From: Candidatus Parcubacteria bacterium
Lineage (GTDB): Bacteria > Patescibacteriota > Microgenomatia > UBA12405
Assembly: GCA_023443725.1 (NCBI GenBank)
Contig: JAEZTF010000010.1
Location: 29,948-93,947 of the forward strand
Length of the DNA stretch: 64,000 nt
Direction of reading: 5' to 3'
Positions 18,868-43,908 of this stretch are shown piece by piece. The translations under genes and the position numbers were made by a program. Positions within the stretch are counted from its first letter, which is position 1. Each line of letters opens with the position of its first letter. The notes beneath the pieces were generated by a model, which searched no databases, was not told the origin of the DNA, and saw only the letters and a program-made list of their open reading frames with translations.

Positions 18868-18885
18868 ATAGTGTATTTTACAAAA

Positions 18886-18958: not shown

Positions 18959-19192
18959 TTTTAGATGATTTAGTCATCGAATAGGTTTATTATACACTAT
19001 TTGGATTTAAAGTATATTGACTTTTGATGAATGTCACCATAAGATTGGGTACTTTAATAAAAATGGTTATTAAAGTTGAAAACCTTTTTATAACTGAAAC
19101 GAAAGCGTTTTGGTTTTTAGATAAAAAAGTTGGTTCTTTAAAAGAATAGATTTTGTTAAATTATTTTCAAAAAATAAAGAAAGGAGATTTTT

Positions 19193-19345: not shown

Positions 19346-19414
19346 AATGTATTTTCAAATCTATCCAAAAAGCGGTTGATCAAAAATTTGTACCCTTTGG
19401 GTGTAAATTAAATA

Positions 19415-20584
19415 TCAGCCGTTTTTTCTTAAAAAAGCAGGGATATCAAATTCGTCAACTATATCAACGCCAGTAGGTATATCTTTATCACCTAAAAATT
19501 TTTTAATTTGATGATCACTTAATTCTTTTACTTCTAAAGAATTAGCAGTGGGTGTTTGTTGAATAATTGGATCTCTATCTATTTGAGGTATTGGTTTTTT
19601 TATAGAACTGTAAAATTGACTTTTAGTATTATCAAATCCAGTAGCAATAACAGAAATTTTTATTTTTCCTTTTAATTCTTTATCGATAGTAGTACCAAAA
19701 ATAATATTGGCATCTGGAGCACTTCTTTCAGTTATGGTTCTAGCAGCTTCTTCTATTTCGGCCATAGTAAGATCTGGTCCTCCAGTAATATTAATCAAGA
19801 CACCTCTAGCACCTTGAATTTCGACTTCAACCAAAGGTGAGTTAATGGCTTCTTCGACTGCTTTTTTAGCTCGAGAATCACCTTCTGCTTCTCCTACTCC
19901 CATAAGTGCAGTACCAGCATTACTCATAACAGATTTGATATCGGCAAAGTCTAAATTTATTAATCCTGGATTAGTAATAAGATCAGCAATAGCTTTCGTA
20001 CCTTTATTTAGTACTGAATCGGCAATTTTGAAAGCTTCTAAAAGAGTGGCCTTATCGTTAACTACTTCCATAACTTTTTGGTTTGGAATGACAATTAAGG
20101 TATCGACATTATTGCGTAATTGAGAAATTCCCTCTTCAGCATTAGTCATACGACGAGTTCCTTCAAAAGCAAATGGTTTGGTGACTACTCCAATAGTTAG
20201 AATACCTAATTCTTTTTTGGCTATTTGAGCAATTATAGGAGCTGCTCCGGTGCATGTTCCTCCACCCATTCCACCAGTAATAAAAACCATATCTGTACCA
20301 GCTAAAACTTCTTTGATTCTTTCCTTAGATTCTTCGGCTGCCTTTTGACCCATTTGAGGATTACCTCCAGCACCTAAACCTTTGGTTAGTTTTTCTCCTA
20401 TTTGAATTTTTATTGGGGCAAGAGAATTTAATAAAGCTTGTGAATCGGTGTTTACGGCAATAAAATCAACTCCAATAATACTATCTTCGGAAATCATCGA
20501 ATTAATAGCATTATTACCGCCGCCACCGACACCGATGACTTTAATTTTGGCAAATTGTCCAGTTAATGTTTTTACTAATCCCAT
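19415..20584 (-). CDS. ftsZ: Cell division GTPase FtsZ.
   Basis: GVGGGGNNAINSM, tubulin signature GGGTCTGAAPIIAQ. Confidence 0.95.
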   Translation of the reverse strand: MGLVKTLTGQFAKIKVIGVGGGGNNAINSMISEDSIIGVDFIAVNTDSQALLNSLAPIKIQIGEKLTKGLGAGGNPQMGQKAAEESKERIKEVLAGTDMVFITGGMGGGTCTGAAPIIAQIAKKELGILTIGVVTKPFAFEGTRRMTNAEEGISQLRNNVDTLIVIPNQKVMEVVNDKATLLEAFKIADSVLNKGTKAIADLITNPGLINLDFADIKSVMSNAGTALMGVGEAEGDSRAKKAVEEAINSPLVEVEIQGARGVLINITGGPDLTMAEIEEAARTITERSAPDANIIFGTTIDKELKGKIKISVIATGFDNTKSQFYSSIKKPIPQIDRDPIIQQTPTANSLEVKELSDHQIKKFLGDKDIPTGVDIVDEFDIPAFLRKNG

Positions 20585-20586
20585 AG

Positions 20587-21843
20587 TTACGGTAAGATAG
20601 GCTCAATTAATTTTTTGACTCGACCAATAATACCTCCAAAATTTAGTTTTATTTTTCTGTTCGAAGAAGAACTAGAAGTATTGTCTTTGTTTTCTCTAGC
20701 CGTCATAAGTAAACCAATAGTACTAGTGTATGCAGGATTGAGAATATCATCGACGATACCTCCCATTTTTGGGGGAAAAGCAATTCTAAAAGGTAAAGGA
20801 ATTATTTTTTCACAAATTTCTTTTGCATTGACGGTTTGGGCACCACCACCAGTAAGAACAATTCCGGCTGGAATTACATGATGCAAATTGGCTGACTCTA
20901 ATTGATTAAAAATTAGATTAAATATTTCTTCAAGTCTTGGTTTGATAATTCCATTAGTGGCAGTTTGAATTGATATTTTTCTGTTTTTATCAAGAGAATC
21001 TATATCTAGTTTGGAAATTTCAATCTCATCATCAAAGTTTTTATTTTCAACTAACTTGTTTAATTTAAGTTTTATTTTTTCAGCATCATCAAGAGAAAAT
21101 CTTAGTCCTATAGCCAAATCATTAGTAACATTATTAGCACCGATAGGAATCACTGAAGAAAATATAGGAGCACCTTCATTAAAAACAGTGATAGTAGTAA
21201 CACTACCACCGATATCTACAAGTGCGACTCCTAATTCTTTTTCGGTTTCACTTAGACTGGCTTTTGCAGCAGCTAAACCAGAAAAAGTAAGATTGTTTAT
21301 ATGGATACCAATATCTTCAAGACATTTTCTAAGATTTTTAAGTGACGGCGTTGAAGCTAGAACAATGTGAGTTTCTACTTCAAGCCTAGTACCATTCATA
21401 CCAATAGGATCGACTACTCCTTCTTGACCATCAACAGTATATTTAATTGGTATTATGTGAATTATTTCTTTTCCAGGTGGTATAGCGATGGCCTTAGCGG
21501 CTTCAACTACTCGATTAATATCATTTTGGTCAATTTCACCGTTGGGGTTGCTAATAGCTACTACACCATGTGAGTTAACAGATTCGATATATGGTGCTGA
21601 TAAAGAGATAGAAGCAGAATTGATTTGAAAACCAGCCATTCTTTCAGCAGATTCTATACTTTGAGTAATAGTGTTGGATGCTTGGTCAATATTAATAATT
21701 TGACCTTTTCTAAAACCTGTGGCAGGGATTGAAGATACAGCAATAATATTAAATTTATCCTCTACTTCCTGATATTGACCGATTATAGTGGTTACTTTTG
21801 AAGTTCCGATATCAATGCCACTAATTGTTTTTGAGTGTTGCAT
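20587..21843 (-). CDS. ftsA: Cell division protein FtsA.
   Basis: Actin-like ATPase: ISGIDIGTSKVTTII, DIGGSVTTITV, 418 aa, directly upstream of ftsZ. Confidence 0.9.
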   Translation of the reverse strand: MQHSKTISGIDIGTSKVTTIIGQYQEVEDKFNIIAVSSIPATGFRKGQIINIDQASNTITQSIESAERMAGFQINSASISLSAPYIESVNSHGVVAISNPNGEIDQNDINRVVEAAKAIAIPPGKEIIHIIPIKYTVDGQEGVVDPIGMNGTRLEVETHIVLASTPSLKNLRKCLEDIGIHINNLTFSGLAAAKASLSETEKELGVALVDIGGSVTTITVFNEGAPIFSSVIPIGANNVTNDLAIGLRFSLDDAEKIKLKLNKLVENKNFDDEIEISKLDIDSLDKNRKISIQTATNGIIKPRLEEIFNLIFNQLESANLHHVIPAGIVLTGGGAQTVNAKEICEKIIPLPFRIAFPPKMGGIVDDILNPAYTSTIGLLMTARENKDNTSSSSSNRKIKLNFGGIIGRVKKLIEPILP

Positions 21844-22198
21844 AAGGATGATCGATGCTAAGATCGACTAAATTAAATTGTCTATTATTCATTTTAGCTG
21901 TTTTAGAAAGATCTTGCAAAGATACAATTTGCCAATATGGATCTTTTTGAGTAGAAATAATAACTTTAACTAAATTATTATTGTTATCTTGTAAATAAAA
22001 TTCAACTTCATTTAAATAATCTCTAATAGTTAAATTAATAGGATCTAATTGACTGGTTTTAAAAGCATTGTTTAATTTATCGTAAAAATCGTTTTGGTTT
22101 GATTTTGGAGTAATAGTTGAGGGATAAGTTTTAATTATAGTAAAAGCAATTATTCCAATAGTTAAAGTCAAACTAAAAATGATTTTAAATAATTTCAT
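21821..22198 (-). CDS. Short FtsQ/DivIB-like membrane-anchored protein (POTRA-less?).
   Basis: Single N-terminal TM and its position between murG and ftsA. No strong motif. Confidence 0.35.
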   Translation of the reverse strand: MKLFKIIFSLTLTIGIIAFTIIKTYPSTITPKSNQNDFYDKLNNAFKTSQLDPINLTIRDYLNEVEFYLQDNNNNLVKVIISTQKDPYWQIVSLQDLSKTAKMNNRQFNLVDLSIDHPYATLKNN

Positions 22199-23276
22199 AA
22201 ATTAACTTTAATAGTTTCAGATTAATTTGATTTTTTATATTTTTATTCTGAAACTTTATTAGTTTTAGTGAATTGATGGATGATAAAAGATTCTTACTGT
22301 TTAATTGGGATTGATCAATAATAATAGTTTGTTGTGGTAATTGTTGTTTAACCCAATTAGCATTTATTAACTGTTCATTTTGTTGACTTTTGGGCAAAGG
22401 AATCAGAATGGATCTTTGATTAAAAGCAACAATTTCTTGGCTAGTATTAGCACCACTTCGACTAATAATTATTGAGGCTTTTTTGAAAATCCACCCCATA
22501 TATTCTGTTTTTATATAATCAAAAGGATAATAATTTTTATATTTTGAAGACAATTTTTTAAATTTCTCGAAGTCTAATGGTCCAGTTTGATGAATAATTA
22601 AAAAATCTTTTAAGTTTGGTAAGATTTTTTTAATAGTTAAGTTAATAACATGCGATCCTTGATTACCAGCGGTAATATAAATAATTGGTTTTTGGTTAGA
22701 TTTAATTGAAGGAATTTTAATTTCTTGAGTAAATAATTCATAGCGGAGTAAATTTCCAGTAACAGCGGTTTTTGTTTTAGGTAAACTTTTTAATTGTTTT
22801 TGATTGTCGAAAGACAAGGCAATTTTAGTTACAAACAAACTGTTTATTTTTGTGGTTAAGCTATTAGTAGCGGTTTGTTCATGAGTAATAGTAGGAATGT
22901 GTTTTAAACAACCATTAATGATTACAGGAACAGAAACATAACCACCAAAAGAAACAATTACATCAGGTTTAATTTTGACTATAATTCTTTTTGATTCAAA
23001 AAAACCAATTATAGTTTTTTTTATACCTCTAAGAGTATTGGGAAAGTACTTACGATCAAATTTACCACATTCAATACCAAAATAACTTATCCCCAATTCA
23101 GGAATAATCTTTGATTCAATTGACTTTTCTTGGCCTTCCGAAGAATTTAATTTACGGCCAATATAATAAATGGTCCAATTAAATTTGGAGTCATTTTTAA
23201 GTTGACGAATCAGTTCTAGAGCTGGTGTGAGATGAGTGCCGGTGATGATGATTATCTTTGTTATCTTTTGACTCAT
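22185..23276 (-). CDS. murG: MurG-like GT28 transferase (UDP-GlcNAc:lipid I GlcNAc transferase).
   Basis: N-terminal IIITGTHLTPALELIRQL resembles the MurG G-loop. A C-terminal ITAGNQGSHVIN motif is present. Sits in the dcw position. Confidence 0.7.
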   Translation of the reverse strand: MSQKITKIIIITGTHLTPALELIRQLKNDSKFNWTIYYIGRKLNSSEGQEKSIESKIIPELGISYFGIECGKFDRKYFPNTLRGIKKTIIGFFESKRIIVKIKPDVIVSFGGYVSVPVIINGCLKHIPTITHEQTATNSLTTKINSLFVTKIALSFDNQKQLKSLPKTKTAVTGNLLRYELFTQEIKIPSIKSNQKPIIYITAGNQGSHVINLTIKKILPNLKDFLIIHQTGPLDFEKFKKLSSKYKNYYPFDYIKTEYMGWIFKKASIIISRSGANTSQEIVAFNQRSILIPLPKSQQNEQLINANWVKQQLPQQTIIIDQSQLNSKNLLSSINSLKLIKFQNKNIKNQINLKLLKLIYEII

Positions 23277-24366
23277 GATTTGAGTATAGCAGGGTTGTGT
23301 TATTTTTTTCGATATTATGAACCAACCCGATGGCGGCGGCTAAAGTAGTTAAAGATGATCCACCATAAGAAATAAATGGTAAAGGAACTCCGGTTAAAGG
23401 GATAATACCAGCAATTGCTGAAACATTAATTAATGTTTGATAAGTAATCCATAAAGCAGTGCCTGAAACTATAAGAGATTGAAAATTGTCAGGAATAATA
23501 TTGGCTAATTTAAACAAATAAGAAATTAAAGAAATATAAACAATTATTATAGAAAATAATCCGATGAATCCGGTTTCTTCACCAATAACCGCCAGAATGG
23601 AATCAGTAGATATTTTTGGAAGAAAACTATATTTTTGATCTGAATTAGCAAAACCTTTACCAAAAAAACCACCAGAAGCTAGAGTTAAAGTAATTTGATT
23701 ACTATGATATGAAGCCGTGTTTTGATTTTGTTCAGGATTTAGCATAGTTTTTAATCTAGCAGACCTATAAGGAGAAGTTAAAACCAATATCAAACTAATC
23801 GAAACTAAAAAAACACAAAATGTAAGAAGTGAGCTAATTTTGCCACCCCCAAGGTAATAAAGTGAAATAGAAATAGCCGATATTAAAATAGCTGTACTTA
23901 AATTTGGTTCTATAATTATTAGTACAAAAGGAATACCTAAATAAACAACCAAGTTTTTTAATTGACAATTTTCACTTTTTGAAAAAAATTTTGAAAGAAA
24001 TAACACTAAACTCAGTTTTAAAATTTCTGATGGTTGAAATTTAACGATGCCCAAATTCAACCAACGATGAGCTCCAAGAGTTTCATCACTAAATCCTGGA
24101 ATAATAACTAATATCAAAGCAATAATTGAAAAAATAAAAAATAAAGGAATATATTTTTGAATAGTTTTAAGTTTTATCTTAGAAAAAATAAAATAAACTA
24201 CAAAACTAATTATTAACCAAAGACTTTGTTTTCTAAGAAAGAAAAACTTATCTCCAATACTAGTAGTAGCTTCACTAAGTGAAGCAATGGAAATAAAAAT
24301 AATTCCAATAGCAATTAGAATAGAAATTAGGGAAATTAAAGGTGATTTAAATGCTGACGGTTTCAT
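23197..24366 (-). CDS. ftsW: FtsW (SEDS) lipid II flippase/PG polymerase.
   Basis: ASGGFFGKGFANS, GEETGFIGL and PLPFISYGGSS. The start is inferred at MKPSAFK (24366), because the ORF-track N-terminal extension overlaps the upstream gene. There is a His-rich C-terminal tail. Confidence 0.75.
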   Translation of the reverse strand: MKPSAFKSPLISLISILIAIGIIFISIASLSEATTSIGDKFFFLRKQSLWLIISFVVYFIFSKIKLKTIQKYIPLFFIFSIIALILVIIPGFSDETLGAHRWLNLGIVKFQPSEILKLSLVLFLSKFFSKSENCQLKNLVVYLGIPFVLIIIEPNLSTAILISAISISLYYLGGGKISSLLTFCVFLVSISLILVLTSPYRSARLKTMLNPEQNQNTASYHSNQITLTLASGGFFGKGFANSDQKYSFLPKISTDSILAVIGEETGFIGLFSIIIVYISLISYLFKLANIIPDNFQSLIVSGTALWITYQTLINVSAIAGIIPLTGVPLPFISYGGSSLTTLAAAIGLVHNIEKNNTTLLYSNHESKDNKDNHHHRHSSHTSSRTDSST

Positions 24367-25480
24367 TGGCAGATTTGATAATTGAGGGTTTGATATTGAT
24401 AGGATTGTTTTGATTAGAAAATGGAATAAAATCTCGATAACGACTACAGGTATTATTTGATTTATCTTTTTTGGTAATTTCAGAACCAATGATTTTAGAA
24501 TTGTAAAATCTTTTATTTTCTTGAGGGATATCTATTTTTGTTTCTATTGGTAAGAATGATAAAAGATGAAAGAAAAAAAGTGAATTAATATTATTTCTAA
24601 TTTCGATTTGATGGTAAAGATCAAAAGAAGCTGTTAATCTTGGATTACATTCTAAAATGAAAACTTCTTCTTGATCAGTTACAAAAAAATCTAGACCAAA
24701 GAAACCATGATAATCAAAATTTGATAATACATCGGCAAGTTGTTCAGTTAAAATTTTAATTTTTTCAACAATTTTTGTTGGAGCAAACGATGGCCATTGT
24801 CGACCAACAGTAGTGAAAGGGTTTTGAGTAAATTGAGAAAGTCCAGTATATTGTAGTCCCGGTGGACTTTGAATTAGACCAGCGTTGGTAAGACAACAAT
24901 TATTAATTAATGAATAACCAGATAAAAATGGTGTAAATTTTACTGGAGTTTGAAGTGGAATTTTATCTTTTATATCTTCCCAATTTGATGAACTAAAGGT
25001 GCTTTTACCAGCCCAACCGAATCTGGTTTGAAGAACTAAATGTTTATTTAATACTTGTTGATATTTTTCAAAGTTTTCTTGATTGAATTTATCAATAATT
25101 GATGGAATTGTAGGTAAATAATGTTTTTTACAAAGTTTAGAAAAATTTATTTTATCTTCTAAAAAGCGATTTATTTTGGCTGGATTAGCGGCGTAAATCC
25201 AATTTTTTTGATGACAGATATGTTCTATCTTTCCCGAAGGTTTGAATGGAATTATAACTGCTTGGTGGCCAGTTTGTTTAATTTTGTTTTTAATAAAATT
25301 AATAGTTATGACTTCTGATAATAATTTCCCCGAATTTTTAATTTTATTGTTTAAATTCAAAATATCTGAATTTAATAAATAAAAATTACTTATTTCTTTA
25401 ATATTGATAGTTAAAAACTTATCAACACTAATAAAGAAAAAATCAAAATTACTATTTTGAAGTGTGTTAATTAGATTCAT
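24347..25480 (-). CDS. ATP-grasp ligase, D-Ala-D-Ala ligase (Ddl)-like, divergent.
   Basis: C-terminal GLDFFVTDQEEVFILECNPRLTASF matches the Ddl-type (R/G)xDFF...E(V/I)N(T)xP pattern. 377 aa with an atypical N-terminus. Confidence 0.5.
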   Translation of the reverse strand: MNLINTLQNSNFDFFFISVDKFLTINIKEISNFYLLNSDILNLNNKIKNSGKLLSEVITINFIKNKIKQTGHQAVIIPFKPSGKIEHICHQKNWIYAANPAKINRFLEDKINFSKLCKKHYLPTIPSIIDKFNQENFEKYQQVLNKHLVLQTRFGWAGKSTFSSSNWEDIKDKIPLQTPVKFTPFLSGYSLINNCCLTNAGLIQSPPGLQYTGLSQFTQNPFTTVGRQWPSFAPTKIVEKIKILTEQLADVLSNFDYHGFFGLDFFVTDQEEVFILECNPRLTASFDLYHQIEIRNNINSLFFFHLLSFLPIETKIDIPQENKRFYNSKIIGSEITKKDKSNNTCSRYRDFIPFSNQNNPINIKPSIIKSANETVSI

Positions 25481-26298
25481 CTTTTGGCACCGGTTAAAAG
25501 AATAACTGGAAAGTTTCCAACATCGATTCCATTTTTAATCGCTTTTTGATAACCGGCTAAAGCTAATGATCCTTCTAAAGAAGTAAAAATATTTTTAGAT
25601 TCGAGTAGTTGATTGGCTAATAAAATAGCTTCATTTTGAACAGTAAAAGCCGAACCATTACAATTCTTAATATTTGAAATAATTTTGTCTTTTAGGGGTA
25701 TAAATTTTACAGATAAAGCATCAGTAATTAGTCTGTTTTCAGGTATAAAGTTGTTATCAAAGCGTTTGGAAATAGGACAGTTACTGGCCGATTGAACAGC
25801 AAAAATCTTAGTTGAAGGTGGAAGTTTTTGGGCAATTCCGAGAAGGGTAGTACCACTACCAACAGGAATAAAAATACTGCTAATTTGTGGTAAATCTTGA
25901 ATAACTTCTAAGGCAATTTGTTGATATCCGATTAAAGCTGAAGGATCGGTTGATTGACGAAGTAGATAAACTTGTTTACTTTTTGCATATTTAATAGCAT
26001 CGCTAATAGGTTGGTCACTTAAAATAATTTCAGCAGAGTATTGCTTTAAAAGATCTAATTTCTTTTGATTTACTTTTGAAGATAAAAATATAGTTAATTC
26101 AATCTGATTGATTTGGCAAAAATGAGCCGCTGAAATTGCTGCATTACCAGTACTAGAGATAACAGCTTTAGTGAAACCAAGATGTTTTAAGTTTTCTATT
26201 TGAAACGGTATGGCTCTATCTTTAGCTGAACCGGTTGGGTTTTGGTCTTCCCTTTTTAAATAAAAATTGTCTATTTTAACTAAAGGAGTATTTGTCAT
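25477..26298 (-). CDS. Short (273 aa) fold-type-II PLP-dependent enzyme (Trp-synthase-beta superfamily, threonine-synthase/cysteine-synthase/racemase-like).
   Basis: PLP-lysine motif YLKREDQNPTGSAKDRA, Gly-rich loop VGSGTTLLG. Confidence 0.6.
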   Translation of the reverse strand: MTNTPLVKIDNFYLKREDQNPTGSAKDRAIPFQIENLKHLGFTKAVISSTGNAAISAAHFCQINQIELTIFLSSKVNQKKLDLLKQYSAEIILSDQPISDAIKYAKSKQVYLLRQSTDPSALIGYQQIALEVIQDLPQISSIFIPVGSGTTLLGIAQKLPPSTKIFAVQSASNCPISKRFDNNFIPENRLITDALSVKFIPLKDKIISNIKNCNGSAFTVQNEAILLANQLLESKNIFTSLEGSLALAGYQKAIKNGIDVGNFPVILLTGAKR

Positions 26299-26341
26299 AT
26301 AATTGGCTAATTATACTAATTATATATTTTTTATCTTTAAT

Positions 26342-26506
26342 ATGACAGAAACAAAGAAAGTTAAATGTCCTGATTGTGGAGCTGAAATTTTATTATCTGG
26401 AACTGAAGAAGTCGGTGATATTTTGGAATGTGGCGAGTGTGGTACTGAAGTAGAAATTACTTCTATTGATCCTCTTTCTTTTAGAGAATTAGTCGAAGAG
26501 AAATAA
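26342..26506 (+). CDS. LysW-like zinc-ribbon protein (amino-group carrier protein family-like) of 54 aa.
   Basis: KCPDCGAEILLSG...GDILECGECGTEVEITSIDPLSFRE matches the LysW ribbon pattern CPxCGAE...CxxCGxE(L/V)E(V/I)...DPL. The C-terminus is ...LVEEK rather than the canonical ...EDWGE. Confidence 0.5.
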   Translation: MTETKKVKCPDCGAEILLSGTEEVGDILECGECGTEVEITSIDPLSFRELVEEK

Positions 26507-27061
26507 TCTGTAAATACCTTGATTCTCAAAATTCAGATCAGTTAAATCGGCTTGTCCATAATGAACTCCCCTATTATCTCTTGAACTATCGACATATAAA
26601 ATAATATTGTCTTTTTTCTCGATGATAAACAAAACATGATGACCATTCTTTTGACGAACTAGGTCGCCAGTTTGAATATCAGTAATATTTGTAATTTTTT
26701 TTGATAAAGGAGTGGAAGTTAACATGTCAGCAGAAGTTTTTCGAGGATTAAGATCTACTTTTTTATTGATCAAAGAACCATAGAATATTAGCAACTGACA
26801 AACTAATCCGGAGCAATCGATACCGATTTTATTTTTCTTTTGAAAATTGTAAATTTCTCTTTCTGAAAGATTTAATAATTTTAAATTTTCTTGGTTAGCC
26901 AATTCAACAGTTTTAAGAGCGATATCTTTAGCGTTTCCCTTACCTCCCATAAATCCCTCTTTGATTATTTTGCCGTCTTTTAAAGTATTCTTCCAATATG
27001 GAATACCGATGTATTTACTGATTTCTAATTTTAATTGATTGATTAATTCAGGCCCAACCAT
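26489..27061 (-). CDS. NlpC/P60-family papain-like peptidase/amidase.
   Basis: Catalytic Cys motif GIDCSGLV, downstream GDLV...GHHVLFI (His). The start is inferred at MVGPEL. Confidence 0.55.
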   Translation of the reverse strand: MVGPELINQLKLEISKYIGIPYWKNTLKDGKIIKEGFMGGKGNAKDIALKTVELANQENLKLLNLSEREIYNFQKKNKIGIDCSGLVCQLLIFYGSLINKKVDLNPRKTSADMLTSTPLSKKITNITDIQTGDLVRQKNGHHVLFIIEKKDNIILYVDSSRDNRGVHYGQADLTDLNFENQGIYRLFLFD

Positions 27062-28077: not shown

Positions 28078-28079
28078 AA

Positions 28080-29408
28080 TTAAATTTTAATATATTCAAT
28101 ATTAGCACCTAAGGAAGAAAGTCGTTCAGCTAATTTTTCGTAGCCTCGTTCTATAAATTCGACACCATCTATAGTAGATATTCCATCAGCAACTAAAGCA
28201 GCTATAGTAGTTGAGGCTCCGGCTCGAAGATCATCAATAACAAAATTAGTTGGTTGTAATTTGGTTGGTCCATATATTTTTACTCCGTGAAAAAAGTTAG
28301 GGTTGTCATTTTCTGGATTAAATTGATAGTAAGTTTCTGGATTTTCAACTATAGGATTAAATAATTGGACTTTTGCTCCCATTTTTTGTAAGTTAGCAAT
28401 ATGTTGAAAACGACTTGGATAGACTTTTTCGATTACCGAACTACAACCTACTGATTGAGTCAAAAGAATTGAAAATAAAGCTTGCCAGTCAGTCATAAAA
28501 GCTGGTTCTGGTCCAGTTTCGATATTGATAGCTTTTAATGGTTTTTCCCAAGAAATATATATTTCTTCCTCCCCTGTTTGGACTTTAGCTCCCATATTTT
28601 CGATGGTATCTAAAAATGTTTTAACCGTTTTTGGATCAGCCCTAAGAATATTGACACTACCTTTGGTGGCTAGAGCAGCGCAAGCAAAAGTAACAATTTC
28701 ATTTCGATCACAAATTACTTGATGTTGAGTACCGGTTAGAGATGAAACTCCTTGGATAACAATTTTTCCAGGGTCAGATGGTTCTCTTTGAATTTTTCCA
28801 CCCATTTTATTTAAAAGAATTATTAGATCGTCTATTTCTGGTTCTTGGCCACAATTTTCTAAAATAGTTTCTCCTGGAACTAATACAGCTGTCATAATTA
28901 AAGTTTCAGTGACGGTATGAGAAGGTTTATTAAAAACATAATGAACTGGTTTAATTTTTTCAGTAGTAAAAACTAAGTTAGTTTCTGTTTCCTTGGTTTG
29001 AATATTCATTTTTGAAAAACAGTCAATTAGACGATCTAGAGGCCTATTGCCAAGACGATCTCCTCCTGGAGTAGGAACTACAGCTTGCCCAGTTCTGGCT
29101 AATAGTGGAGCAGAAAACATAAATGAACTACGAGATTTAATTCCAGTTCCTTGTGGGACAGTAAAATTTTTTATTTTTGAGGTAGTTACTTTGATGCAAT
29201 GTTCACCACAAGAACTTATTTCTGATCCTAAAGATTTTGCAATGCTTTCGGTTATTTTTATATCAGAAATATTGGGAATATTGGTTAATTGGGTAGTTTG
29301 ATCAGAAAGCATAGAAGCAATAATTTGTTTATAGCTAGCATTCTTTGCTCCTCTAATAGAAACTTCACCTTGAAGTTTTTTCCCGCCAGAGATGATATAT
29401 CGTGACAT
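28080..29408 (-). CDS. murA: UDP-N-acetylglucosamine 1-carboxyvinyltransferase.
   Basis: LQGEVSIRGAKNAS near the N-terminus, 442 aa, EPT fold. Confidence 0.85.
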   Translation of the reverse strand: MSRYIISGGKKLQGEVSIRGAKNASYKQIIASMLSDQTTQLTNIPNISDIKITESIAKSLGSEISSCGEHCIKVTTSKIKNFTVPQGTGIKSRSSFMFSAPLLARTGQAVVPTPGGDRLGNRPLDRLIDCFSKMNIQTKETETNLVFTTEKIKPVHYVFNKPSHTVTETLIMTAVLVPGETILENCGQEPEIDDLIILLNKMGGKIQREPSDPGKIVIQGVSSLTGTQHQVICDRNEIVTFACAALATKGSVNILRADPKTVKTFLDTIENMGAKVQTGEEEIYISWEKPLKAINIETGPEPAFMTDWQALFSILLTQSVGCSSVIEKVYPSRFQHIANLQKMGAKVQLFNPIVENPETYYQFNPENDNPNFFHGVKIYGPTKLQPTNFVIDDLRAGASTTIAALVADGISTIDGVEFIERGYEKLAERLSSLGANIEYIKI

Positions 29409-29413
29409 AAATA

Positions 29414-30787
29414 TTAGTGAATATTTTTAATAATTGATTTAATAATTTTATTACCAGACAAACCACCAGAACTCATATATATAAGGATATCATTTGATGA
29501 TAAATGATGTATATAGTAGGCTTTTATTTCTTTTTCGATAGGAATATAAATCAACTTTGATCCAATTTCTTGTTTAAAGTCTTTAGCAGTAGCACGAGAT
29601 TTTTTGTCTACATTAGGGTTAAATCTAATTGGTCCTAAAACTATTTCATTAGCTTTTGTAAAAGCTTTTTTTAAGCCAATTAAATTACTTTTATATTGGG
29701 TAAATGAGGCATGAGGTTGAAAGAATACTTTTATTAATTTATCTGGAAAATGAGTTGTTAAAGCTTCAATGGTTGATTTAATACGATTTGGTGATTGAGC
29801 GAAATCTTCAAAAAACAAAATATTTTTTTGTTTATCAATTAATTCTAATCGCCTTTTAACTCCTCTATAAGAAAAAACAGCTTTTTGAATAAAACGAAAA
29901 CTAATACCTAATTGATCAGACATACTAACTGCAGCCAGAATATTCTCAAAGTTAAATTGACCGATAAGAGTAGTTTGAATAGATAACGGACCTTTGGGGG
30001 TATGGATTAATAAGTTGGTTATATCAGATTTAATATTTATTTTTTCTATAAAATAATCAGATTCTGGAGAATTATAGGAAACAATTTTAGCTTTTGAATA
30101 AAGACTAAGTTTTTTGGTTTGACAGCCAAGAGAATTGATTAAAAGGGTGCCATTTTCTGGTAGTCGATTAATTAATTTCTTAAAAGCTTGAAAATTTTTT
30201 ATTTTACTAGAATAAGAATCTTTATGTTCCCAATCGGCACTAGTTAAAATTAAATGTTTAATTGGATAATATAAAAACTTAGCTTTTCGATCTAATCCAT
30301 TAATTGATTCATCGGCTTCAACGATAGACCAATTAGATGGAGAGAAGTTAATAGAGTTCATCTTATTTTTGGCGTATCCACCAAACATGTAATTTGGATC
30401 TTTTTTAGCTTGAATGAAAATCCAAGACAATAGACTAGTGATAGTAGTTTTTCCAAAACTACCAGCAATTAAGACAGACTCATCTTTAATTAAGTTTTGA
30501 GCTAAATAATTAGTAGCAGAAATATAGGGAATTTTTAGTTTTTTTATTTGATTAAATTCTTTTTTGGTTTTTTCAAAAGAAAGATATGATGATCCAATAA
30601 TAGCCAAATCAATATTAGTATTGATTTCTATCGAATTGATCGATATATCCGCTTTTTTTAACATAGTACTAATTGGGGGATAAATTTTTTCTTGATCTGA
30701 TCCGGTTATATAAACTCCTCTTTTTTTGAGATTAACTGCCAGAGGAGCAGTCATGGTTCCAGCTATTCCGACTATGTGAATATGCAT
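29414..30787 (-). CDS. murC: Mur ligase, MurC/Mpl-like.
   Basis: N-terminal Rossmann IHIVGIAGTMTAPLAVNLKKRGVYITGSD (MurC-type), P-loop AGSFGKTTITS. Confidence 0.6.
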   Translation of the reverse strand: MHIHIVGIAGTMTAPLAVNLKKRGVYITGSDQEKIYPPISTMLKKADISINSIEINTNIDLAIIGSSYLSFEKTKKEFNQIKKLKIPYISATNYLAQNLIKDESVLIAGSFGKTTITSLLSWIFIQAKKDPNYMFGGYAKNKMNSINFSPSNWSIVEADESINGLDRKAKFLYYPIKHLILTSADWEHKDSYSSKIKNFQAFKKLINRLPENGTLLINSLGCQTKKLSLYSKAKIVSYNSPESDYFIEKINIKSDITNLLIHTPKGPLSIQTTLIGQFNFENILAAVSMSDQLGISFRFIQKAVFSYRGVKRRLELIDKQKNILFFEDFAQSPNRIKSTIEALTTHFPDKLIKVFFQPHASFTQYKSNLIGLKKAFTKANEIVLGPIRFNPNVDKKSRATAKDFKQEIGSKLIYIPIEKEIKAYYIHHLSSNDILIYMSSGGLSGNKIIKSIIKNIH

Positions 30788-30822
30788 ATTAGTAAATAGC
30801 TAATAAATAGTTAATAGTTGAA

Positions 30823-31419
30823 TTATTTTTCATATGGAAGCCATTGATTGTCTTTAAAATATTCAAATCCAGGCATATTACGTTTATAGAATCCAGTTTC
30901 AATAGAAAAACGACCTAAATAACAAAATTGAAGATTTTGTTGTTGACTGTCAACAATGGTTTGTAACACCAATCTAATAGGTAAATTACTATGATTATAT
31001 TTAGGATTATAAAAAACATAAGCAATATGACTAATAGAGTTAGAAAAATAACATATTGAATAAGCAATTATCTGATGATTTTCATTATACCAACTATAAA
31101 TAGTATTAAAAATATGATTAGTAAATGTTTTTTTGACTGAACTTATGGGAAAATCCCAACCTAATTGTTTTATCCAAGAAAAAATTTCTTTTTGAATATT
31201 AAGATCAAATTTAAAATCGTTCAAATTAGTTTTAATAAAAGAAAAATTATCAGTTTTTCTTAAAATCCTTCTATTTTCTGAACTGAGATTAAACTTGGAT
31301 AAATTTGATCGACAACTACTATCCTGATACCAAAGATCTTTTTGGTTTCTTTGAGGAAGGAATCCTTGTTGATAATTTAATTCTATAGATTGATTGTTGG
31401 TTAAATTAAATTGGGTCAT
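30823..31419 (-). CDS. ATE/Bpt-family (arginyl/leucyl-tRNA-protein transferase C-terminal domain-like) protein embedded in the mur operon.
   Basis: IAYVFYNPKYNHSNLPIRLVLQTIVDSQQQNLQFCYLGRFSIETGFYKRNMPGFEYF resembles the ATE_C signature (AVYtFYDP...SLG...YvYLGYwI..c.KM.YK..F.P.E). It overlaps murE by 4 nt, which suggests translational coupling. Confidence 0.45.
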   Translation of the reverse strand: MTQFNLTNNQSIELNYQQGFLPQRNQKDLWYQDSSCRSNLSKFNLSSENRRILRKTDNFSFIKTNLNDFKFDLNIQKEIFSWIKQLGWDFPISSVKKTFTNHIFNTIYSWYNENHQIIAYSICYFSNSISHIAYVFYNPKYNHSNLPIRLVLQTIVDSQQQNLQFCYLGRFSIETGFYKRNMPGFEYFKDNQWLPYEK

Positions 31420-32735
31420 ATTTTTTTTAATTTTAAAGCAGTTCTAAAAGCTTCTGTTTCTGACCAAGGATATTCAGTATTTCCATGAAGAATAGTATCT
31501 TCATGACCTTTACCACAAGCAATCACAACATCATCGGGTTGGGCTAACTTAATAGCTATATTGAAAGCGTCCTGTCGATTGGGAATATTAAAATAAGTAA
31601 ATTTTTGGTCAATCTTTTTTAGAATATCATTTATTTGTTTTTGATTTTCAATTTTTTGAATGTCAACAAAATTGGATTTATTAGGATCAATACCATTGAT
31701 TATTTGTTGATTAATTTGACTAATATCTTCGTTTCTAGTGTCGTCTGAAGTAATAATGGCAATATCAGCTAGACTAGAGACTACTTGACCCATTTGAGGT
31801 CGTTTTGTTTGATCTCGTCCGCCTGTGGCTCCAAAAATAATAATAATTTTACCTTTAGTAATTTTCTTTAATGAAGAAAGAGTTTTTTCTAAAGCGTTTG
31901 GAGTATGGGCAAAATCAACAATTGTTTTAAATTTAAAATTATTTTTAACTTCTTCTCGACGACCTTTGGTTTCGGGAAAATTTTTAACTGTTTCGAGTAA
32001 GAATTGTCGATTAATTTTTAAGTTATCAATAATTCCTAAGGCAACCAATATATTATTAATCTGATAAAAATAATTACTATCAGTGGTTATGGTTAGTTTA
32101 TTTACTTTAAAACTTAATTTTTTATTAGTTAATTTAATATCTTTAGCTTGATAATCTGACTTTTGGTCAACACTGTAAGTTGAGTAAGGAATTTGAATCA
32201 TAGGTTTAATTATTTGATATGACGAATCGTCTTTATTGATAATGCCATAATCTGATTGAGAGAAAATTTTTGCTTTAGACTGAATATACTCTTCCATGTT
32301 TGAATAATAATCTAAATGCTCATGTGAAGTGTTGGTAATAGCTGCAGTTATAAAGTGGCAACCTAAAAATCGATATTGATCAAGGCCATGAGCAGTAACT
32401 TCACAAACTACATGAGTAACTCCTGCAGCTAACATTTGACTAAGTATTTGCTGAAATAATTTTGGATCTGGACTAGTCATATGTAAACCAGTACTTATTT
32501 CTTGATTATTTCCAAACTTAGCGCCTATTGTAGTAATTACACCGGCATTAATACCAGCTTTTTTTAAAATTTCATAAACTAAAATACAACTAGTTGTTTT
32601 ACCATCGGTTCCAGTAATACCAATAAGTTTTAGTTTTTTTGCTGGAAAATTATGTTGAAGACTGACAAAAAAGTTTTTTGGGTAATGCCAGAAAAGATTT
32701 TTTATTTTTTGAAAATTGATCGATTTTAATGACAT
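31416..32735 (-). CDS. murE: UDP-MurNAc-L-Ala-D-Glu:diamino-acid ligase.
   Basis: P-loop GITGTDGKTTS, DFAHTPNALE motif, position after ftsI. Confidence 0.7.
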   Translation of the reverse strand: MSLKSINFQKIKNLFWHYPKNFFVSLQHNFPAKKLKLIGITGTDGKTTSCILVYEILKKAGINAGVITTIGAKFGNNQEISTGLHMTSPDPKLFQQILSQMLAAGVTHVVCEVTAHGLDQYRFLGCHFITAAITNTSHEHLDYYSNMEEYIQSKAKIFSQSDYGIINKDDSSYQIIKPMIQIPYSTYSVDQKSDYQAKDIKLTNKKLSFKVNKLTITTDSNYFYQINNILVALGIIDNLKINRQFLLETVKNFPETKGRREEVKNNFKFKTIVDFAHTPNALEKTLSSLKKITKGKIIIIFGATGGRDQTKRPQMGQVVSSLADIAIITSDDTRNEDISQINQQIINGIDPNKSNFVDIQKIENQKQINDILKKIDQKFTYFNIPNRQDAFNIAIKLAQPDDVVIACGKGHEDTILHGNTEYPWSETEAFRTALKLKKI

Positions 32736-32749
32736 ATTTAGCGAGTTAA

Positions 32750-34369
32750 TTATAACAAATGGTTGATTTTAGAGGCTAATTCAAACCAAATTGGAGCAGC
32801 AGTACTAGAACCCCAAGGTGAACTTTTAGGATTATTAATAGTTACAATCATGGTAAATTTTGGATTATCACATGGAGAAAAACCAATATAGGAAGCAATG
32901 GTTGAAGAATCAGTATAACCACCTTTTACAGCAATTTGAGCGGTACCACTTTTAGCACAAACTTCAAGATTTTTTGGTTTCATAACAGAAACTACTCCAT
33001 TTTCGACAGAATATTTAAGGATTGATTTAATTTCTTCAATCGAATTTTGATTGAAAATTTGTTGTGGATTATTGTTTTTGTCTATTAAAATGTGAGGTTT
33101 AACTAATAACCCATTGTTAGCAATAGTATTAAATGCTTGCAACATACCTACTTGAGTAACGACTATTCCCTGTCCAAATGAAGCAGTAGCTAGATCTATA
33201 TCTGGCCAATTAGTTTTAGTACTAGGACGTGATTCTCCTTGCAAATCAATACCAGTTTTTTGGTTGAGACCAAGTTTTTGAAAATAATTTAAAAACTTTT
33301 CTAAACCAATTTTTGAGATAATATGGCTCATACCGATATTGTCGGAATTTTTTATGATCTCTTTAAGAGATGAGTCTGGATGGGTTTCGTTATCATGATT
33401 GGTTATAGTATATTCCCCTATTTTTAGAGGTTTATCGCATTCATGGCAAACATAATCAGGAGAAATTGATTTACTATCCAAACCAATAGTGACAACTAAT
33501 GGTTTAAATATTGATCCTGGTTCAAAAAGATCAGAAATTGAATTTATTTTTGTAGCACTGGGAGTGGCTGAAGTGGTGGCAGTAAAAGTGGTCATAGCTA
33601 AAATACCTCCGGTTTTACTATCCATAACTGTAATGGATCCAGAATCGGCATCATATTTTTCAACACCTTCTTTTAATTCTTTTTCTACTTCAAATTGAAC
33701 ACTGCGATTTAAAGTGGTGTGTAAATCTTGTCCGTCAATAGCAATAGAATTCCAAGACTTTTTAGTAAGAATAGCTTTTCCAGTAGCGTCTTGAGGAGAC
33801 CAAGTAAAACCCGTTTTACCTTTTAATTGTTTTTGGTAATAGCCTTCAAGCCCTCCGTAACCTATATCGTAGCCTTGATCGTTTTTTGCTACCAACCCTA
33901 AAATTGGTTGAGCCAATGATTGTTCTGGATAGTATCTTTTTTCATTTTTTTCAAAACTAAGACCGGGTATTTTAAGTTGGTTTTTTTCTTCTTCGTTAAA
34001 AAGACTAGTGAAAGTTAACCATTTTTGATTTTGATTACTTTTAAACAATTCAATTAACTTTATATTTTCTTGGTTGAATTGTGGATGAATTTGATTGATT
34101 TTTGTAAAAACTTCTTCAAGACTTTGATCTAAATTTGGTTTGTATATCGACAATTTATAATTAGTAACATTAAGAACCAAAGGAAAATCATCGGACGAAT
34201 ATATTTTTCCCCGACTGGGGATAGTTTTCTCAAGTTTGTACATTTGAATTAAAGCCTTTTCTCTTAATTCTGGTCCTTCTATCACTTGAATATAAAAAAA
34301 TCGACAGATTATAAAAATAAAACAGATTATTAAAGTTGTAGAAACAGTTTTAATTCTAGAGCTATTCAT
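32750..34369 (-). CDS. ftsI: Penicillin-binding protein 2B/3 (class B transpeptidase).
   Basis: N-terminal TM. Active-site motifs SIFKP (SxxK), SDN, KSGTA (KTG). Confidence 0.8.
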   Translation of the reverse strand: MNSSRIKTVSTTLIICFIFIICRFFYIQVIEGPELREKALIQMYKLEKTIPSRGKIYSSDDFPLVLNVTNYKLSIYKPNLDQSLEEVFTKINQIHPQFNQENIKLIELFKSNQNQKWLTFTSLFNEEEKNQLKIPGLSFEKNEKRYYPEQSLAQPILGLVAKNDQGYDIGYGGLEGYYQKQLKGKTGFTWSPQDATGKAILTKKSWNSIAIDGQDLHTTLNRSVQFEVEKELKEGVEKYDADSGSITVMDSKTGGILAMTTFTATTSATPSATKINSISDLFEPGSIFKPLVVTIGLDSKSISPDYVCHECDKPLKIGEYTITNHDNETHPDSSLKEIIKNSDNIGMSHIISKIGLEKFLNYFQKLGLNQKTGIDLQGESRPSTKTNWPDIDLATASFGQGIVVTQVGMLQAFNTIANNGLLVKPHILIDKNNNPQQIFNQNSIEEIKSILKYSVENGVVSVMKPKNLEVCAKSGTAQIAVKGGYTDSSTIASYIGFSPCDNPKFTMIVTINNPKSSPWGSSTAAPIWFELASKINHLL

Positions 34370-34617
34370 TTTAGATTTACTTTTTGATCAATGTATATGA
34401 GAGGCTTTTTTTGTTGTTCTAGATAAAGATAATTAATAGAAGTCATATCGGTGAATTTTTTTTCTAGGCCTTGAGTTTCTATTTTAAGTTTTTGATGTTC
34501 AATTTGATTTTGATAAAGCTGACTGTTTTGGTTGATAATTTCACTTGAATAATAAAAAGAAAAAACGATTTGAATAGAAATAATTACAACTAAAATGTAA
34601 GTAAAATATTTTGGCAT
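34366..34617 (-). CDS. FtsL-like small bitopic coiled-coil division protein.
   Basis: 83 aa with an N-terminal TM and a heptad-rich tail. It sits between rsmH and ftsI. Confidence 0.5.
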   Translation of the reverse strand: MPKYFTYILVVIISIQIVFSFYYSSEIINQNSQLYQNQIEHQKLKIETQGLEKKFTDMTSINYLYLEQQKKPLIYIDQKVNLK

Positions 34618-35501
34618 TAAACTATTTTATACGATCTAAGGATAGCTGAGCGAGATAGTGGATTTTTTTTGATTTCTTTAAATGAAGGGTGGACTGCTTT
34701 GCTGACTTGGAAAATTTTATTTTCAGACAAATTATTTTGAATAAATTGTTTAATAATTCTATCTTCGCCTGAATGAAAACTAATAAAACAAGCCGTTCCG
34801 TTTGGTTTTATAATGTTTAAACTTTGAGAAAGGATTTGTTTGAGATTGCTAAATTCTTGATTAACAGCAATTTTTAAAGCTAAAAATATTTTAGTACTAG
34901 GATCGGTTTTAGTTCTGATTTTCTTTTCTAAATAAAAATTTCTGATAATATCAGCCAATCTTTTGGCATTGGTAATAGGTTTTTTTTGACGTTCAGAAAT
35001 TATTTTTGATACTAAGTCATGACTATACAATTCTTGACTATTTTTGGAAAAAATTTCATACAACTCTTCGGCAGAACCGATGTTAATGATATCTTTAGCA
35101 GTAGGATCATTGGAATTTTGGTTAATTCGCATATCTAAAGATTCCTCATCGTTAAAAGAAAAACCTCTATTAGTAGAGATTTGTTGGTTTCTACTTAAAC
35201 CTAAATCAACTAAAAGGCCATCAACTTTTTGATTAATTTTTTCGTTAACAATTTTTTGTAGTTGATTAAAATTGGATAATACAGGGGTAAATTTTCCTGA
35301 TAAACCGGCATTTTTGATTCTTTCAGTAGATATTTCTAAATTAGTTTGATCTTGATCTATACCATAAACAATAGCATCTTGTTGAAGAAGGGCTAAAGTA
35401 TGTCCCCCATTTCCTAAAGTAGCATCAATAATAATAGAGTTTGGTTTAATGTTTAGGCTAGATATTACTTCTTCAAGAAGAACTGGTTGGTGATAATCCA
35501 T
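34617..35501 (-). CDS. rsmH: 16S rRNA (cytosine1402-N4)-methyltransferase RsmH/MraW.
   Basis: YHQPVLLEEVISSL...IIDATLGNGGHT. Confidence 0.85.
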   Translation of the reverse strand: MDYHQPVLLEEVISSLNIKPNSIIIDATLGNGGHTLALLQQDAIVYGIDQDQTNLEISTERIKNAGLSGKFTPVLSNFNQLQKIVNEKINQKVDGLLVDLGLSRNQQISTNRGFSFNDEESLDMRINQNSNDPTAKDIINIGSAEELYEIFSKNSQELYSHDLVSKIISERQKKPITNAKRLADIIRNFYLEKKIRTKTDPSTKIFLALKIAVNQEFSNLKQILSQSLNIIKPNGTACFISFHSGEDRIIKQFIQNNLSENKIFQVSKAVHPSFKEIKKNPLSRSAILRSYKIV

Positions 35502-36211
35502 TAGTTGATTAAGTAATCTCCAGTTATGACAGTGGTATCTTCTTTGGTAACTGTGGAAGGGGTAATAGAAGATACTTTACCACTACCATTACCACTAGAG
35601 AAAACTGAATAAACTGGTTTAAAGTTTTTGATTAAAACGAAGTAATCACTTTTTGAAGAAACACTAGCTTTAATAGAAAAATTTTCAGTCTCCAAACTTA
35701 AACCTTTAGATTTAATATCTGCAGAAGTTAACAAAACAAATGGTGCTTCGTATGAAGCTGATTGACCATCAGCAGTAATGAAACTAAGAGAAAGAGTTCC
35801 ACCAGTAATACCCTCATCGTATTTATATTTACAGCCGCTAGTACAACTTTCGGTACCCAAGAGTAATTCTCTGTCTATAGATGTACCTTCAATTTTAGCT
35901 GTACCACCAACTCCTTTTTCAATTTCAATATTTTCGTCTTTGGCGGTGTAGATTAAATCATATTCGATTTCTTTGATACTCTCAGGAATATTAGAAATCT
36001 TTAAGTTCAATCGATGGCCATCAGCTTGAGGAGTCAAACTAATATATGGTTTTTGATCATCAGTTAAAACCAATTCAATTTCGGTTTTTGTATTTTGAGT
36101 TGTATTATTGACTGAAGTTTTTTTGTTTTTGCCAGTTAATACCATAACAATGGTGATAATTATCAATACTAAAGCACCAATAATGAAATAGATTGCTGTT
36201 TTATTTTTCAT
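35501..36211 (-). CDS. Exported hypothetical protein at the head of the dcw cluster. It is not MraZ.
   Basis: N-terminal TM. S/T/G-rich beta-type sequence, 236 aa. Confidence 0.4.
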   Translation of the reverse strand: MKNKTAIYFIIGALVLIIITIVMVLTGKNKKTSVNNTTQNTKTEIELVLTDDQKPYISLTPQADGHRLNLKISNIPESIKEIEYDLIYTAKDENIEIEKGVGGTAKIEGTSIDRELLLGTESCTSGCKYKYDEGITGGTLSLSFITADGQSASYEAPFVLLTSADIKSKGLSLETENFSIKASVSSKSDYFVLIKNFKPVYSVFSSGNGSGKVSSITPSTVTKEDTTVITGDYLIN

Positions 36212-43907: not shown

Positions 43908-43908
43908 T

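Follow-up and report, generated by a model that had tools for sequence, protein, structure and literature searches.

The locus described here raises the question of which enzymes build the stem peptide of peptidoglycan when the division and cell wall (dcw) cluster lacks several Mur ligase genes and carries other genes in their slots. It is located on contig JAEZTF010000010.1 of a Candidatus Parcubacteria bacterium (GCA_023443725.1), of which a 64-kb stretch (positions 29,948-93,947) was analyzed as a whole; this stretch is called the window in the following, and all coordinates refer to it. In the canonical dcw cluster of Escherichia coli the order is mraZ-rsmH-ftsL-ftsI-murE-murF-mraY-murD-ftsW-murG-murC-ddl-ftsQ-ftsA-ftsZ. 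Its backbone rsmH-ftsL-ftsI-murE...mraY...ftsW-murG-(Q)-ftsA-ftsZ is kept in the window, whereas mraZ, murF, murD, murC, and ddl are missing from the cluster. Instead, murE is followed by the genes of an ATE-like aminoacyl-tRNA (aa-tRNA) transferase and an Mpl-like ligase, and the murD slot is occupied by the genes of an NlpC-like peptidase, an antisense LysW-like zinc ribbon, a pyridoxal phosphate (PLP) enzyme, and an ATP-grasp ligase. The explanation favored here, to which a probability of roughly 40% is assigned, is that the Mpl-like ligase attaches residues 1 and 2 of the stem en bloc after their synthesis off the nucleotide, so that this module would replace MurC and MurD.

The family calls are based on a comparison of the open reading frames (ORFs) of the window with Pfam and NCBIfam, to which the curated equivalog or gathering cutoffs were applied. 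With the ORF list and these calls, a minus-strand run of 17 ORFs with small gaps or overlaps, reaching from 36211 to 19415, was reproduced in the order given by an earlier reading of the sequence, called the original prediction below. The run is not unbroken as assumed there, but is interrupted once by an 18th gene on the plus strand at 26342-26506. This is the LysW-like gene, which had been overlooked; the other extras named for the empty slots, the aa-tRNA-transferase homolog, the NlpC/P60 peptidase, the PLP enzyme, and the ATP-grasp protein, are all present.

A scan of one genome per species yielded 80 loci, the titled ones being mostly metagenome-assembled genomes (MAGs) of Shapirobacteria. 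Each of the 55 Shapirobacteria loci that reach from murE to ftsW shows the order murE, ATE-like, ligase, (murA), mraY, NlpC-like, PLP, ATP-grasp, ftsW, and none of them lacks any of the extra genes, the LysW-like one included (55/55), while murA belongs to 47 of the 55 clusters. Because the same order recurs in 55 of 55 loci, the arrangement is a character of the clade and not a chimera. The idea that an assembly chimera or a mis-binned insertion created it has practically no probability left, since these 55 independent MAG loci come from many studies, the same inserts recur in four more distant lineages, and the G+C content (about 30% in the window) is uniform over the cluster region at about 28-34%. 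The synteny comparison with relatives, proposed along with the original prediction, thus refuted this artefact. The homologs of the ATP-grasp protein (556) and of the ATE-like protein (563) are nearly equal in number. Among the matches listed, the named ATP-grasp homologs belong to MAGs of Candidatus Shapirobacteria or Patescibacteria, and the named ATE-like homologs are MAG proteins of the same groups or carry generic arginyltransferase labels.

The more distant lineages, represented by the loci L087, L092, L093, and L094, share a core set consisting of the ATE-like, Mpl-like, and LysW-like proteins, the ThrC-like PLP enzyme, and the ATP-grasp protein. L087 shows the full Shapirobacteria arrangement plus mraZ. 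L093 has the core module with ATE-like, Mpl-like, LysW-like (ending in -EEK), PLP, and ATP-grasp genes and no NlpC-like gene, and L094 resembles it with a murF before mraY. The full module is also found in L092, where the order is short murE-ATE-like-Mpl-like-murB-murA-ddl-murF-mraY-NlpC-like-LysW-like-PLP-ATP-grasp-ftsW. The Ddl of this locus is bona fide (354 bits, cutoff 262), and with MurE, MurB, MurA, Ddl, MurF, MraY, and MurG in the cluster only MurC and MurD are missing among the canonical cytoplasmic enzymes. Neither of these two was seen in any of the module-bearing clusters examined. The block of LysW-like, PLP, and ATP-grasp genes always lies in the murD slot between mraY and ftsW, and the pair of ATE-like and Mpl-like genes is placed where the sister lineage L085 has a true murC. 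The latter locus has no module and reads mraZ-rsmH-ftsL-ftsI-short murE-true murC-murB-murA-glmU, its MurC reaching 423.6 bits on TIGR01082 (cutoff 335).

Since murF is kept in the cluster by L092 and L094, and ddl and murB also by L092, the module coexists with MurF, Ddl, and MurB in relatives and its members are not substitutes for these enzymes. The proposal that the extra genes stand in for murF and ddl therefore had to be abandoned. Of the more general proposal, a stem peptide made by non-standard chemistry, one part is retained, as the conserved extras fit peptide and amino acid chemistry, but the steps that appear to be affected are those of MurC and MurD and not those of MurF and Ddl.

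The missing canonical genes were searched for in the 64-kb window and in 10 kb on each flank. Pfam scans of the remaining ORFs detected no murD, murF, ddl, murB, or mraZ in the window, and phmmer searches with MurC, MurD, MurE, MurF, DdlB, and MraZ of E. coli matched solely the two Mur-ligase paralogs there. By tblastn, MraZ and MurB from relatives in the candidate phyla radiation (CPR) gave no match in the window, and MraZ from relatives none in the Shapirobacteria loci. The extra 10 kb on either side contain no murD, murF, ddl, or murB. Across the 64-kb window, these searches confirm that murD, murF, mraZ, and ddl are not in their canonical slots. As murA is present inside the cluster, murB must lie outside the window in this genome, which shows that absence from the cluster does not equal absence from the genome. 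The class B penicillin-binding protein (PBP) FtsI, encoded at 32750-34369 (-) and showing PBP_dimer and Transpeptidase domains in Pfam, has an intact DD-transpeptidase site with the motifs S286xxK, S342DN, and K473SG conserved to 100% in 57 orthologs. Because these motifs are all kept, donors with a D-Ala-D-Ala terminus are still expected. The Shapirobacteria presumably encode murF, ddl, and murB outside the cluster. For these three genes the alternative left by the original prediction, ligases encoded elsewhere, is probably right, considering that module-bearing relatives keep murF or ddl and that murA occurs without murB.

This leads to the first rival explanation, which is doubtful in our view but has to be taken seriously. 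Canonical murC, murD, murF, ddl, murB, and the racemases might all lie elsewhere, and the role of the extra genes would then be limited to modifying an otherwise normal precursor. The ATE-like enzyme would act like FemX or MurM and transfer a cross-bridge residue from aa-tRNA onto the side chain of position 3, the PLP enzyme and the ATP-grasp ligase would correspond to the enterococcal pair of racemase and D-Asp ligase and add a D-amino acid branch, and the Mpl-like ligase and the NlpC/P60 protein would recycle the cell's own peptides. That murB is certainly outside the cluster, and that module-bearing relatives retain ddl or murF, speaks for such a decoration of the precursor, as it points to essential wall genes outside the cluster in this clade. 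The position of the ligase, which is that of the true murC in the sister lineage, argues against it and suggests replacement over an added recycling enzyme.

The ligase, encoded at 29414-30787 (-), had been labeled murC, a name which does not hold. In pairwise comparison it is closer to Mpl of E. coli (152 bits) than to its MurC (106 bits), and its top match in the PDB is 3hn7, the Mpl of Psychrobacter arcticus (PMC3060825). It reaches 231.4 bits on the MurC model TIGR01082, below the cutoff of 335.1, and 173.1 bits on the Mpl model TIGR01081 (orthologs 153-249 bits), below the cutoff of 388.7. In MurC, L-Ala is held by His376, Arg377, Arg380, Tyr346, and His348, whereas YPP, an (S/T)AFFDKRSK loop, DFAHH, EPRSNT, and SNGG are specific for Mpl (Das et al., 2011, PMC3060825). 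The window ligase and most orthologs are Mpl-like in five of six signature regions. The shared features are YPP, an extra loop after EADE, DFA, a one-residue-longer loop of the EPRSNT type, and SSGG. The QPHRxxRxR motif of MurC is not present; in the window ligase the sequence is QPHASFTQYK, which like that of Mpl has one residue inserted, and the equivalents of Arg377 and Arg380 are lost in it and in its orthologs. By these sequence features, the protein is a divergent member of the MurC/Mpl family of uridine diphosphate N-acetylmuramic acid (UDP-MurNAc) ligases, which carries Mpl signatures and falls into neither equivalog. Its predicted activity is to join UDP-MurNAc with a peptide made beforehand. 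The Mpl enzymes that have been characterized use tri-, tetra-, and pentapeptides in this reaction and accept L-Ala-D-Glu or L-Ala weakly. The ligase shares its motifs with the Mpl of E. coli and of P. arcticus (3hn7) and has an N-terminal domain of the UDP-MurNAc type, but its C-terminal domain is divergent and its gene lies in a dcw operon at the murC position, whereas Mpl is encoded by a stand-alone recycling gene.

The ATE-like gene at 30823-31419 (-) lies between murE and the ligase gene and codes for a transferase of the ATE/Bpt fold with 198 amino acids. Its ATE_C domain was found by Pfam above the threshold (7e-7), with the corresponding fold, and the protein consists of a single GNAT-like domain. 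It differs from ATE1 and Bpt by its small size, by the lack of an ATE_N match in Pfam, and by scores far below the cutoffs on the NCBIfam Bpt models (18-31 bits vs. 170-358). The nearest folds are those of aa-tRNA transferases, with ATE1 nearer than FemX. The features of the FemXAB family, a FemAB Pfam domain and two GNAT domains with a coiled coil, are not found in this protein with its one GNAT-like domain. The hallmark acceptor of the ATE family is an N-terminal Glu or Asp, and the closeness to ATE1 therefore speaks against a FemX-like role in decorating the precursor. A functional tie between the ATE-like enzyme and the flanking aminoacyl-tRNA synthetase (aaRS) genes was considered and is not supported, since the same class II aaRS (GlyRS-like) lies beside the module-less clusters L085 and L088.

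The LysW-like gene at 26342-26506 (+) codes for a zinc ribbon of 54 amino acids, which matches PF21344 with 48.6 bits (6.4e-13, threshold 27) and is strongly acidic (isoelectric point 4.1). It runs against the direction of the operon. Its overlap with the NlpC-like gene, at the 3' end of the latter, amounts to 18 nt, and 44 nt separate its start from that of the PLP gene. At the same place and on the same strand it was found in all 65 loci spanning mraY to ftsW. A profile of the family matches the LysW chains 5k2m_E (5e-9) and 3wwl (1e-8) from Thermococcus and Thermus. C9, C12, C30, C33, E52, and K54 do not vary, and the tail has the form ...(Y/F)RELxEEK, in the window ...RELVEEK; L087, L092, L093, and L094 also show the -EEK tail. 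Judged from its sequence, the protein is a relative of LysW with a different tail. The canonical LysW tail ends with EDWGE, the C-terminal Glu being the attachment site. No ATP-grasp of the RimK/LysX type and no LysZ, LysY, LysJ, or LysK partner was found beside the gene. With the LysW/LysX systems of Thermus, Sulfolobus, and Thermococcus the locus shares a small acidic zinc ribbon with four cysteines whose gene adjoins an ATP-grasp gene. Candidate divergent promoters at about 26276-26348 are suggestive only; the promoter scan was not above chance (91 found vs. 94 expected).

The LysW-like, ATP-grasp, and PLP genes could have joined the cluster as hitch-hikers, forming a carrier-protein pathway for an amino acid comparable to LysW/LysX whose product is not used in the wall. 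The homology to LysW is significant, and carrier-tethered amino acid pathways are known from amino-group carrier protein (AmCP) systems and pearlins (PMC9303977). Such a pathway is very unlikely here, given that five lineages, with orthologs sharing just 30-40% identity, have retained the block between mraY and ftsW, that it always co-occurs with the ATE-like and Mpl-like pair, that the partners LysZ, LysY, LysJ, and LysK are missing, and that the tail is non-canonical and the ATP-grasp protein not of the LysX type. A decoration of the normal precursor, on the other hand, would leave this universally conserved protein without a role.

The PLP enzyme of fold type II (PALP), a ThrC-like protein of 273 amino acids, is encoded at 25477-26298 (-) and matches PF00291 with 4e-45. 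Its lysine (NPTGSAKDR) is invariant. The nearest NCBIfam models are archaeal-type threonine synthases (best 103.6 bits, cutoff 358; 145 bits for the L092 ortholog), and with the profile of the family, relatives of ThrC, dehydratases, and racemases could not be told apart. The stop of this gene overlaps by 4 nt with the start of the ATP-grasp gene (24347-25480, -), and an apparent fusion of the two in the locus L032 was an artefact caused by a run of N. The ATP-grasp protein, recognized by Pfam, belongs to the structural type of amino acid and peptide ligases, which are its nearest folds. Its fold neighbors include PylC and thereby ligases that acylate side-chain amines, which again is consistent with the addition of a branch to a finished precursor. 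A divergent Ddl, as which the protein could have been interpreted, was rejected because DdlB of E. coli gave no match to it, because of its peptide-ligase fold, and because a true Ddl is encoded alongside in L092.

In front of these genes, at 26489-27061 (-), lies the gene of the NlpC/P60-like cysteine peptidase, whose likely start is the ATG at 27061 (the ORF opens with a TTG at 27097). With 18.3 bits (2e-3) it stays below the threshold of 23 on PF00877. A profile of the family aligns DCSG and GxHV with Spr/MepS, and both motifs are invariant in 24 orthologs, as are C83 and H142 (numbering from the ATG at 27061) of the DCSGLV and His motifs. No signal peptide was found in the protein, and for this reason it is regarded as cytoplasmic. 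As the gene is absent from L093 and L094, the peptidase is an accessory member of the module.

A cytoplasmic NlpC/P60 enzyme has a precedent in YkfC of Bacillus subtilis, which cuts imported murein peptides. This gives some weight to a salvage route, in which these host-dependent cells would take up foreign wall peptides, either from a host or from their surroundings. The peptides would be trimmed or rebuilt by the NlpC/P60 protein, a MurE without its domain 1, the ATP-grasp ligase, and the ATE-like enzyme, and then be re-attached to UDP-MurNAc by the Mpl-like ligase, making MurC and MurD dispensable. By definition, Mpl is a ligase that serves in recycling (PMC3060825), and the sparse metabolism of CPR genomes (PMC6744442) would fit a dependence on salvage as well. 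We nevertheless regard this route as unlikely. No peptide transporter was found in or near the cluster by the ORF scans of the window and the 10-kb flanks, two module lineages do without the NlpC-like gene, the PLP enzyme and the LysW-like protein would have no obvious role, and a foreign stem peptide for every wall subunit seems fragile.

The murE-type ligase at 31416-32735 (-) reaches 342 bits on TIGR01085 and thus passes the cutoff of this subfamily (257.3). It has no N-terminal UDP-binding domain 1: the alignment to the profile starts at position ~78-107, with about 28 residues preceding, and that to MurE of E. coli (137 bits) at residue 166. The P-loop and the catalytic, middle-domain, and C-terminal-domain motifs are conserved. 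The DNPR motif for meso-diaminopimelate is replaced by an invariant DDTR, in which the Arg is kept and Asn-Pro is lost. Short MurE proteins of 400-450 amino acids without domain 1 are common among the nearest representatives of 50%-identity clusters, many of them beyond the clade; one is encoded beside the true MurC in L085, and others belong to L088, L092, and L094. The loss of domain 1 was therefore rejected as a marker of the module. The MurF proteins of L092 and L094 are likewise shortened at the N-terminus and align from residue 93 of the E. coli MurF. In the near-identical ENA contig NODE_107 (locus L001), the murE ORF is frameshifted near its nucleotide 1121 (contig position ~3867, corresponding to ~31615 of the window) and codes for 392 instead of 439 amino acids, probably as the result of an assembly error or of strain variation.

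In the favored explanation, the module would take over the part of stem synthesis performed by MurC and MurD, and probably the supply of D-Glu too. The PLP enzyme would provide a D- or otherwise modified amino acid, the ATP-grasp ligase would form an amide bond, probably with the LysW-like protein as handle or acceptor, and the ATE-like enzyme would add one aminoacyl residue from aa-tRNA. The resulting di- or oligopeptide would be joined en bloc to UDP-MurNAc by the Mpl-like ligase, and the pentapeptide would be completed by the domain-1-less MurE, by MurF, and by Ddl, with MurF, Ddl, and MurB of the Shapirobacteria coming from outside the cluster. A PLP enzyme, an ATP-grasp protein, and a peptide-adding ligase of the Mur family are encoded together here as a possible second triad that mirrors Alr-Ddl-MurF, and the opposite end of the stem peptide may thus follow a parallel logic. 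The likeness is one of analogy only, for the PLP enzyme has fold type II and not III, the ATP-grasp protein is not of the Ddl type, the ligase is Mpl-like, and the set additionally includes a LysW-like protein and an aa-tRNA transferase.

A more far-reaching version, which seems improbable, is that the whole stem peptide or its first residues are built amide-tethered to the LysW-type carrier (-E-E-K) and not on UDP-MurNAc, so that MurC and MurD would be obsolete. The ATP-grasp ligase would load the first residue onto the carrier, the domain-1-less MurE and MurF would elongate the peptide, and the NlpC/P60 peptidase or another enzyme would release it. The ATE-like enzyme would then transfer L-Ala from Ala-tRNA onto the N-terminal Glu thus exposed before the Mpl-like ligase joins the finished peptide en bloc to UDP-MurNAc.

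Several points weigh against a replacement of MurC and MurD. Canonical murC, murD, murI, and alr may lie elsewhere, beyond the window and the flanks searched. The module-less locus L088 (short murE...murF-DegT-FemAB-mraY-ftsW) is also without murC and murD in its cluster, with mraY abutting ftsW, which makes absence from the cluster weak evidence. The curated models score the ligase higher as MurC (231 bits) than as Mpl (173 bits), both below the cutoffs, and it may simply be a fast-evolving MurC. The -EEK tail differs from the canonical EDWGE, in which Glu is the last residue, and the ATP-grasp protein does not belong to the LysX type. A MurE without domain 1 is widespread, also together with a true MurC, and thus gives no argument for assembly off the nucleotide. 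PLP chemistry requires a free alpha-amine, which constrains carrier-tethered schemes, and the substrates of the module proteins are themselves predicted ones. The FemAB gene just before mraY in L088 moreover shows that tRNA-dependent bridge enzymes occur in dcw clusters of this group, which is in favor of the decoration of a normal precursor.

Other inserts of L088 (11323-18832) comprise a class A beta-lactamase-like protein and an M15 peptidase of the VanX/VanY type, together with MurF, the DegT aminotransferase, and FemAB before mraY. In this group, the murE-mraY interval seems to be a hotspot of innovation in wall chemistry.

MurA-F, the cytoplasmic Mur pathway, is regarded as close to universal among bacteria with a wall and serves as one of the main targets of antibiotics. 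Here, a conserved gene set appears to replace its MurC and MurD steps. If this is true, it adds a new route of stem-peptide biosynthesis, extends LysW-type carriers from the amino acid biosynthesis of archaea and Thermus to the bacterial cell wall, shows genome-reduced CPR bacteria rewiring an essential pathway, and offers concrete, clonable candidates for biochemical tests. Even on a conservative reading, a whole class of uncultured bacteria is predicted to have an unusual wall chemistry. MurD2 and MurL of Xanthomonas form an alternative route to the D-Glu residue and are a precedent for a rerouted D-Glu step, with no homologous enzymes shared. Carrier-tethered amino acid chemistry is known for LysW systems and pearlins, not in peptidoglycan synthesis. 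The carrier-peptide pathways of the pearlins, with loading onto a small carrier, modification, and release by a peptidase (PMC9303977), are a precedent for the carrier logic, again without homologous enzymes in common. Literature searches on wall genes of Shapirobacteria, Patescibacteria, and Microgenomates, on dcw clusters of CPR bacteria, and on LysW revealed no account of this module.

The remaining genes of the run are for the most part typical for a dcw cluster, and the Pfam and NCBIfam searches supported most of the labels given before; the exceptions are hyp236 and the proteins in the ftsL and ftsQ slots, which match no family. The first gene, hyp236 (35501-36211, -), codes for a membrane-anchored protein with an N-terminal hydrophobic segment and without a Pfam or NCBIfam match. 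It is present at the head of the run as described, but its homolog in L087 (43% identity) is placed between a class II aaRS gene and mraZ. As it lies upstream of mraZ in relatives, hyp236 is probably a neighbor of the cluster, and its membership is unlikely. Since mraZ is missing, the first true dcw gene is rsmH (mraW), encoding a 16S rRNA methyltransferase (34617-35501, -; PF01795, 3e-75). It is followed by the gene of a bitopic protein of 83 amino acids in the ftsL slot (34366-34617, -), which is FtsL-like by position alone, this position being conserved in 39 loci.

Downstream of the ligase gene, murA (28080-29408, -; TIGR01072, 402 bits, cutoff 393) and mraY (27043-28077, -; PF00953, 9e-29) are located. 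The presence of murA had been taken as an oddity, which it is not, as the longest known version of the dcw cluster contains murA and murB (PMC8871954). The ATP-grasp gene is followed by ftsW of the SEDS family (23197-24489, -; PF01098, 6e-88) and by murG (22185-23276, -), which has the N- and C-terminal Glyco_transf_28 domains. The next gene (21821-22198, -) codes for a bitopic protein of 125 amino acids, whose assignment to the ftsQ slot is by position alone; FtsQ of E. coli gave no match to it, and its position is conserved in 54 loci. The run ends with ftsA (20587-21843, -; FtsA and SHS2_FTSA domains) and ftsZ (19415-20584, -; Tubulin and FtsZ_C domains).

Behind ftsZ, the order ftsZ-ileS-rodA-L21-L27 is conserved across the Shapirobacteria loci. 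In the gap of 547 nt between ftsZ and ileS (18868-19414) no Rfam match and no T-box were detected, and in L001 an ORF call of 40 amino acids falls in it. Directly after ileS, at 15052-16050 (-), lies the gene of a second, RodA-like SEDS protein, followed by the genes for L21, L27, and ParB; no gene for a class B PBP and no mreB was seen adjoining it. A tandem of tRNA-Gly(CCC) and tRNA-Thr(CGT) is located at 5140-5297 (+) and a tRNA-Val(CAC) at 12834-12909 (-), none of them inside the dcw cluster.

Upstream of the dcw cluster, genes for an NTP_transferase, a Bac_transf protein, a DUF4012 protein, RecO, a class II aaRS, and the hypothetical protein are syntenic in L085, L087, and L088. A long co-directional polysaccharide cluster extends over 39133-57748 (-) and comprises about ten glycosyltransferases of the families GT1, GT2, and GT4, two Wzy-like proteins, a PMT_2-like and a DUF4012 protein, a Bac_transf priming transferase, a hexapeptide acyltransferase, a mannose-1-phosphate guanylyltransferase, and an embedded recO. 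Large ORFs without a Pfam match are located at 37712-39136 (-; 474 amino acids) and at 62115-63497 (+; 460 amino acids). Finally, an S-adenosylmethionine (SAM)-I/IV riboswitch (RF01725) was identified at 59202-59323 (+) with 42.7 bits (gathering threshold 41.1), immediately upstream of metK (59314-60432).

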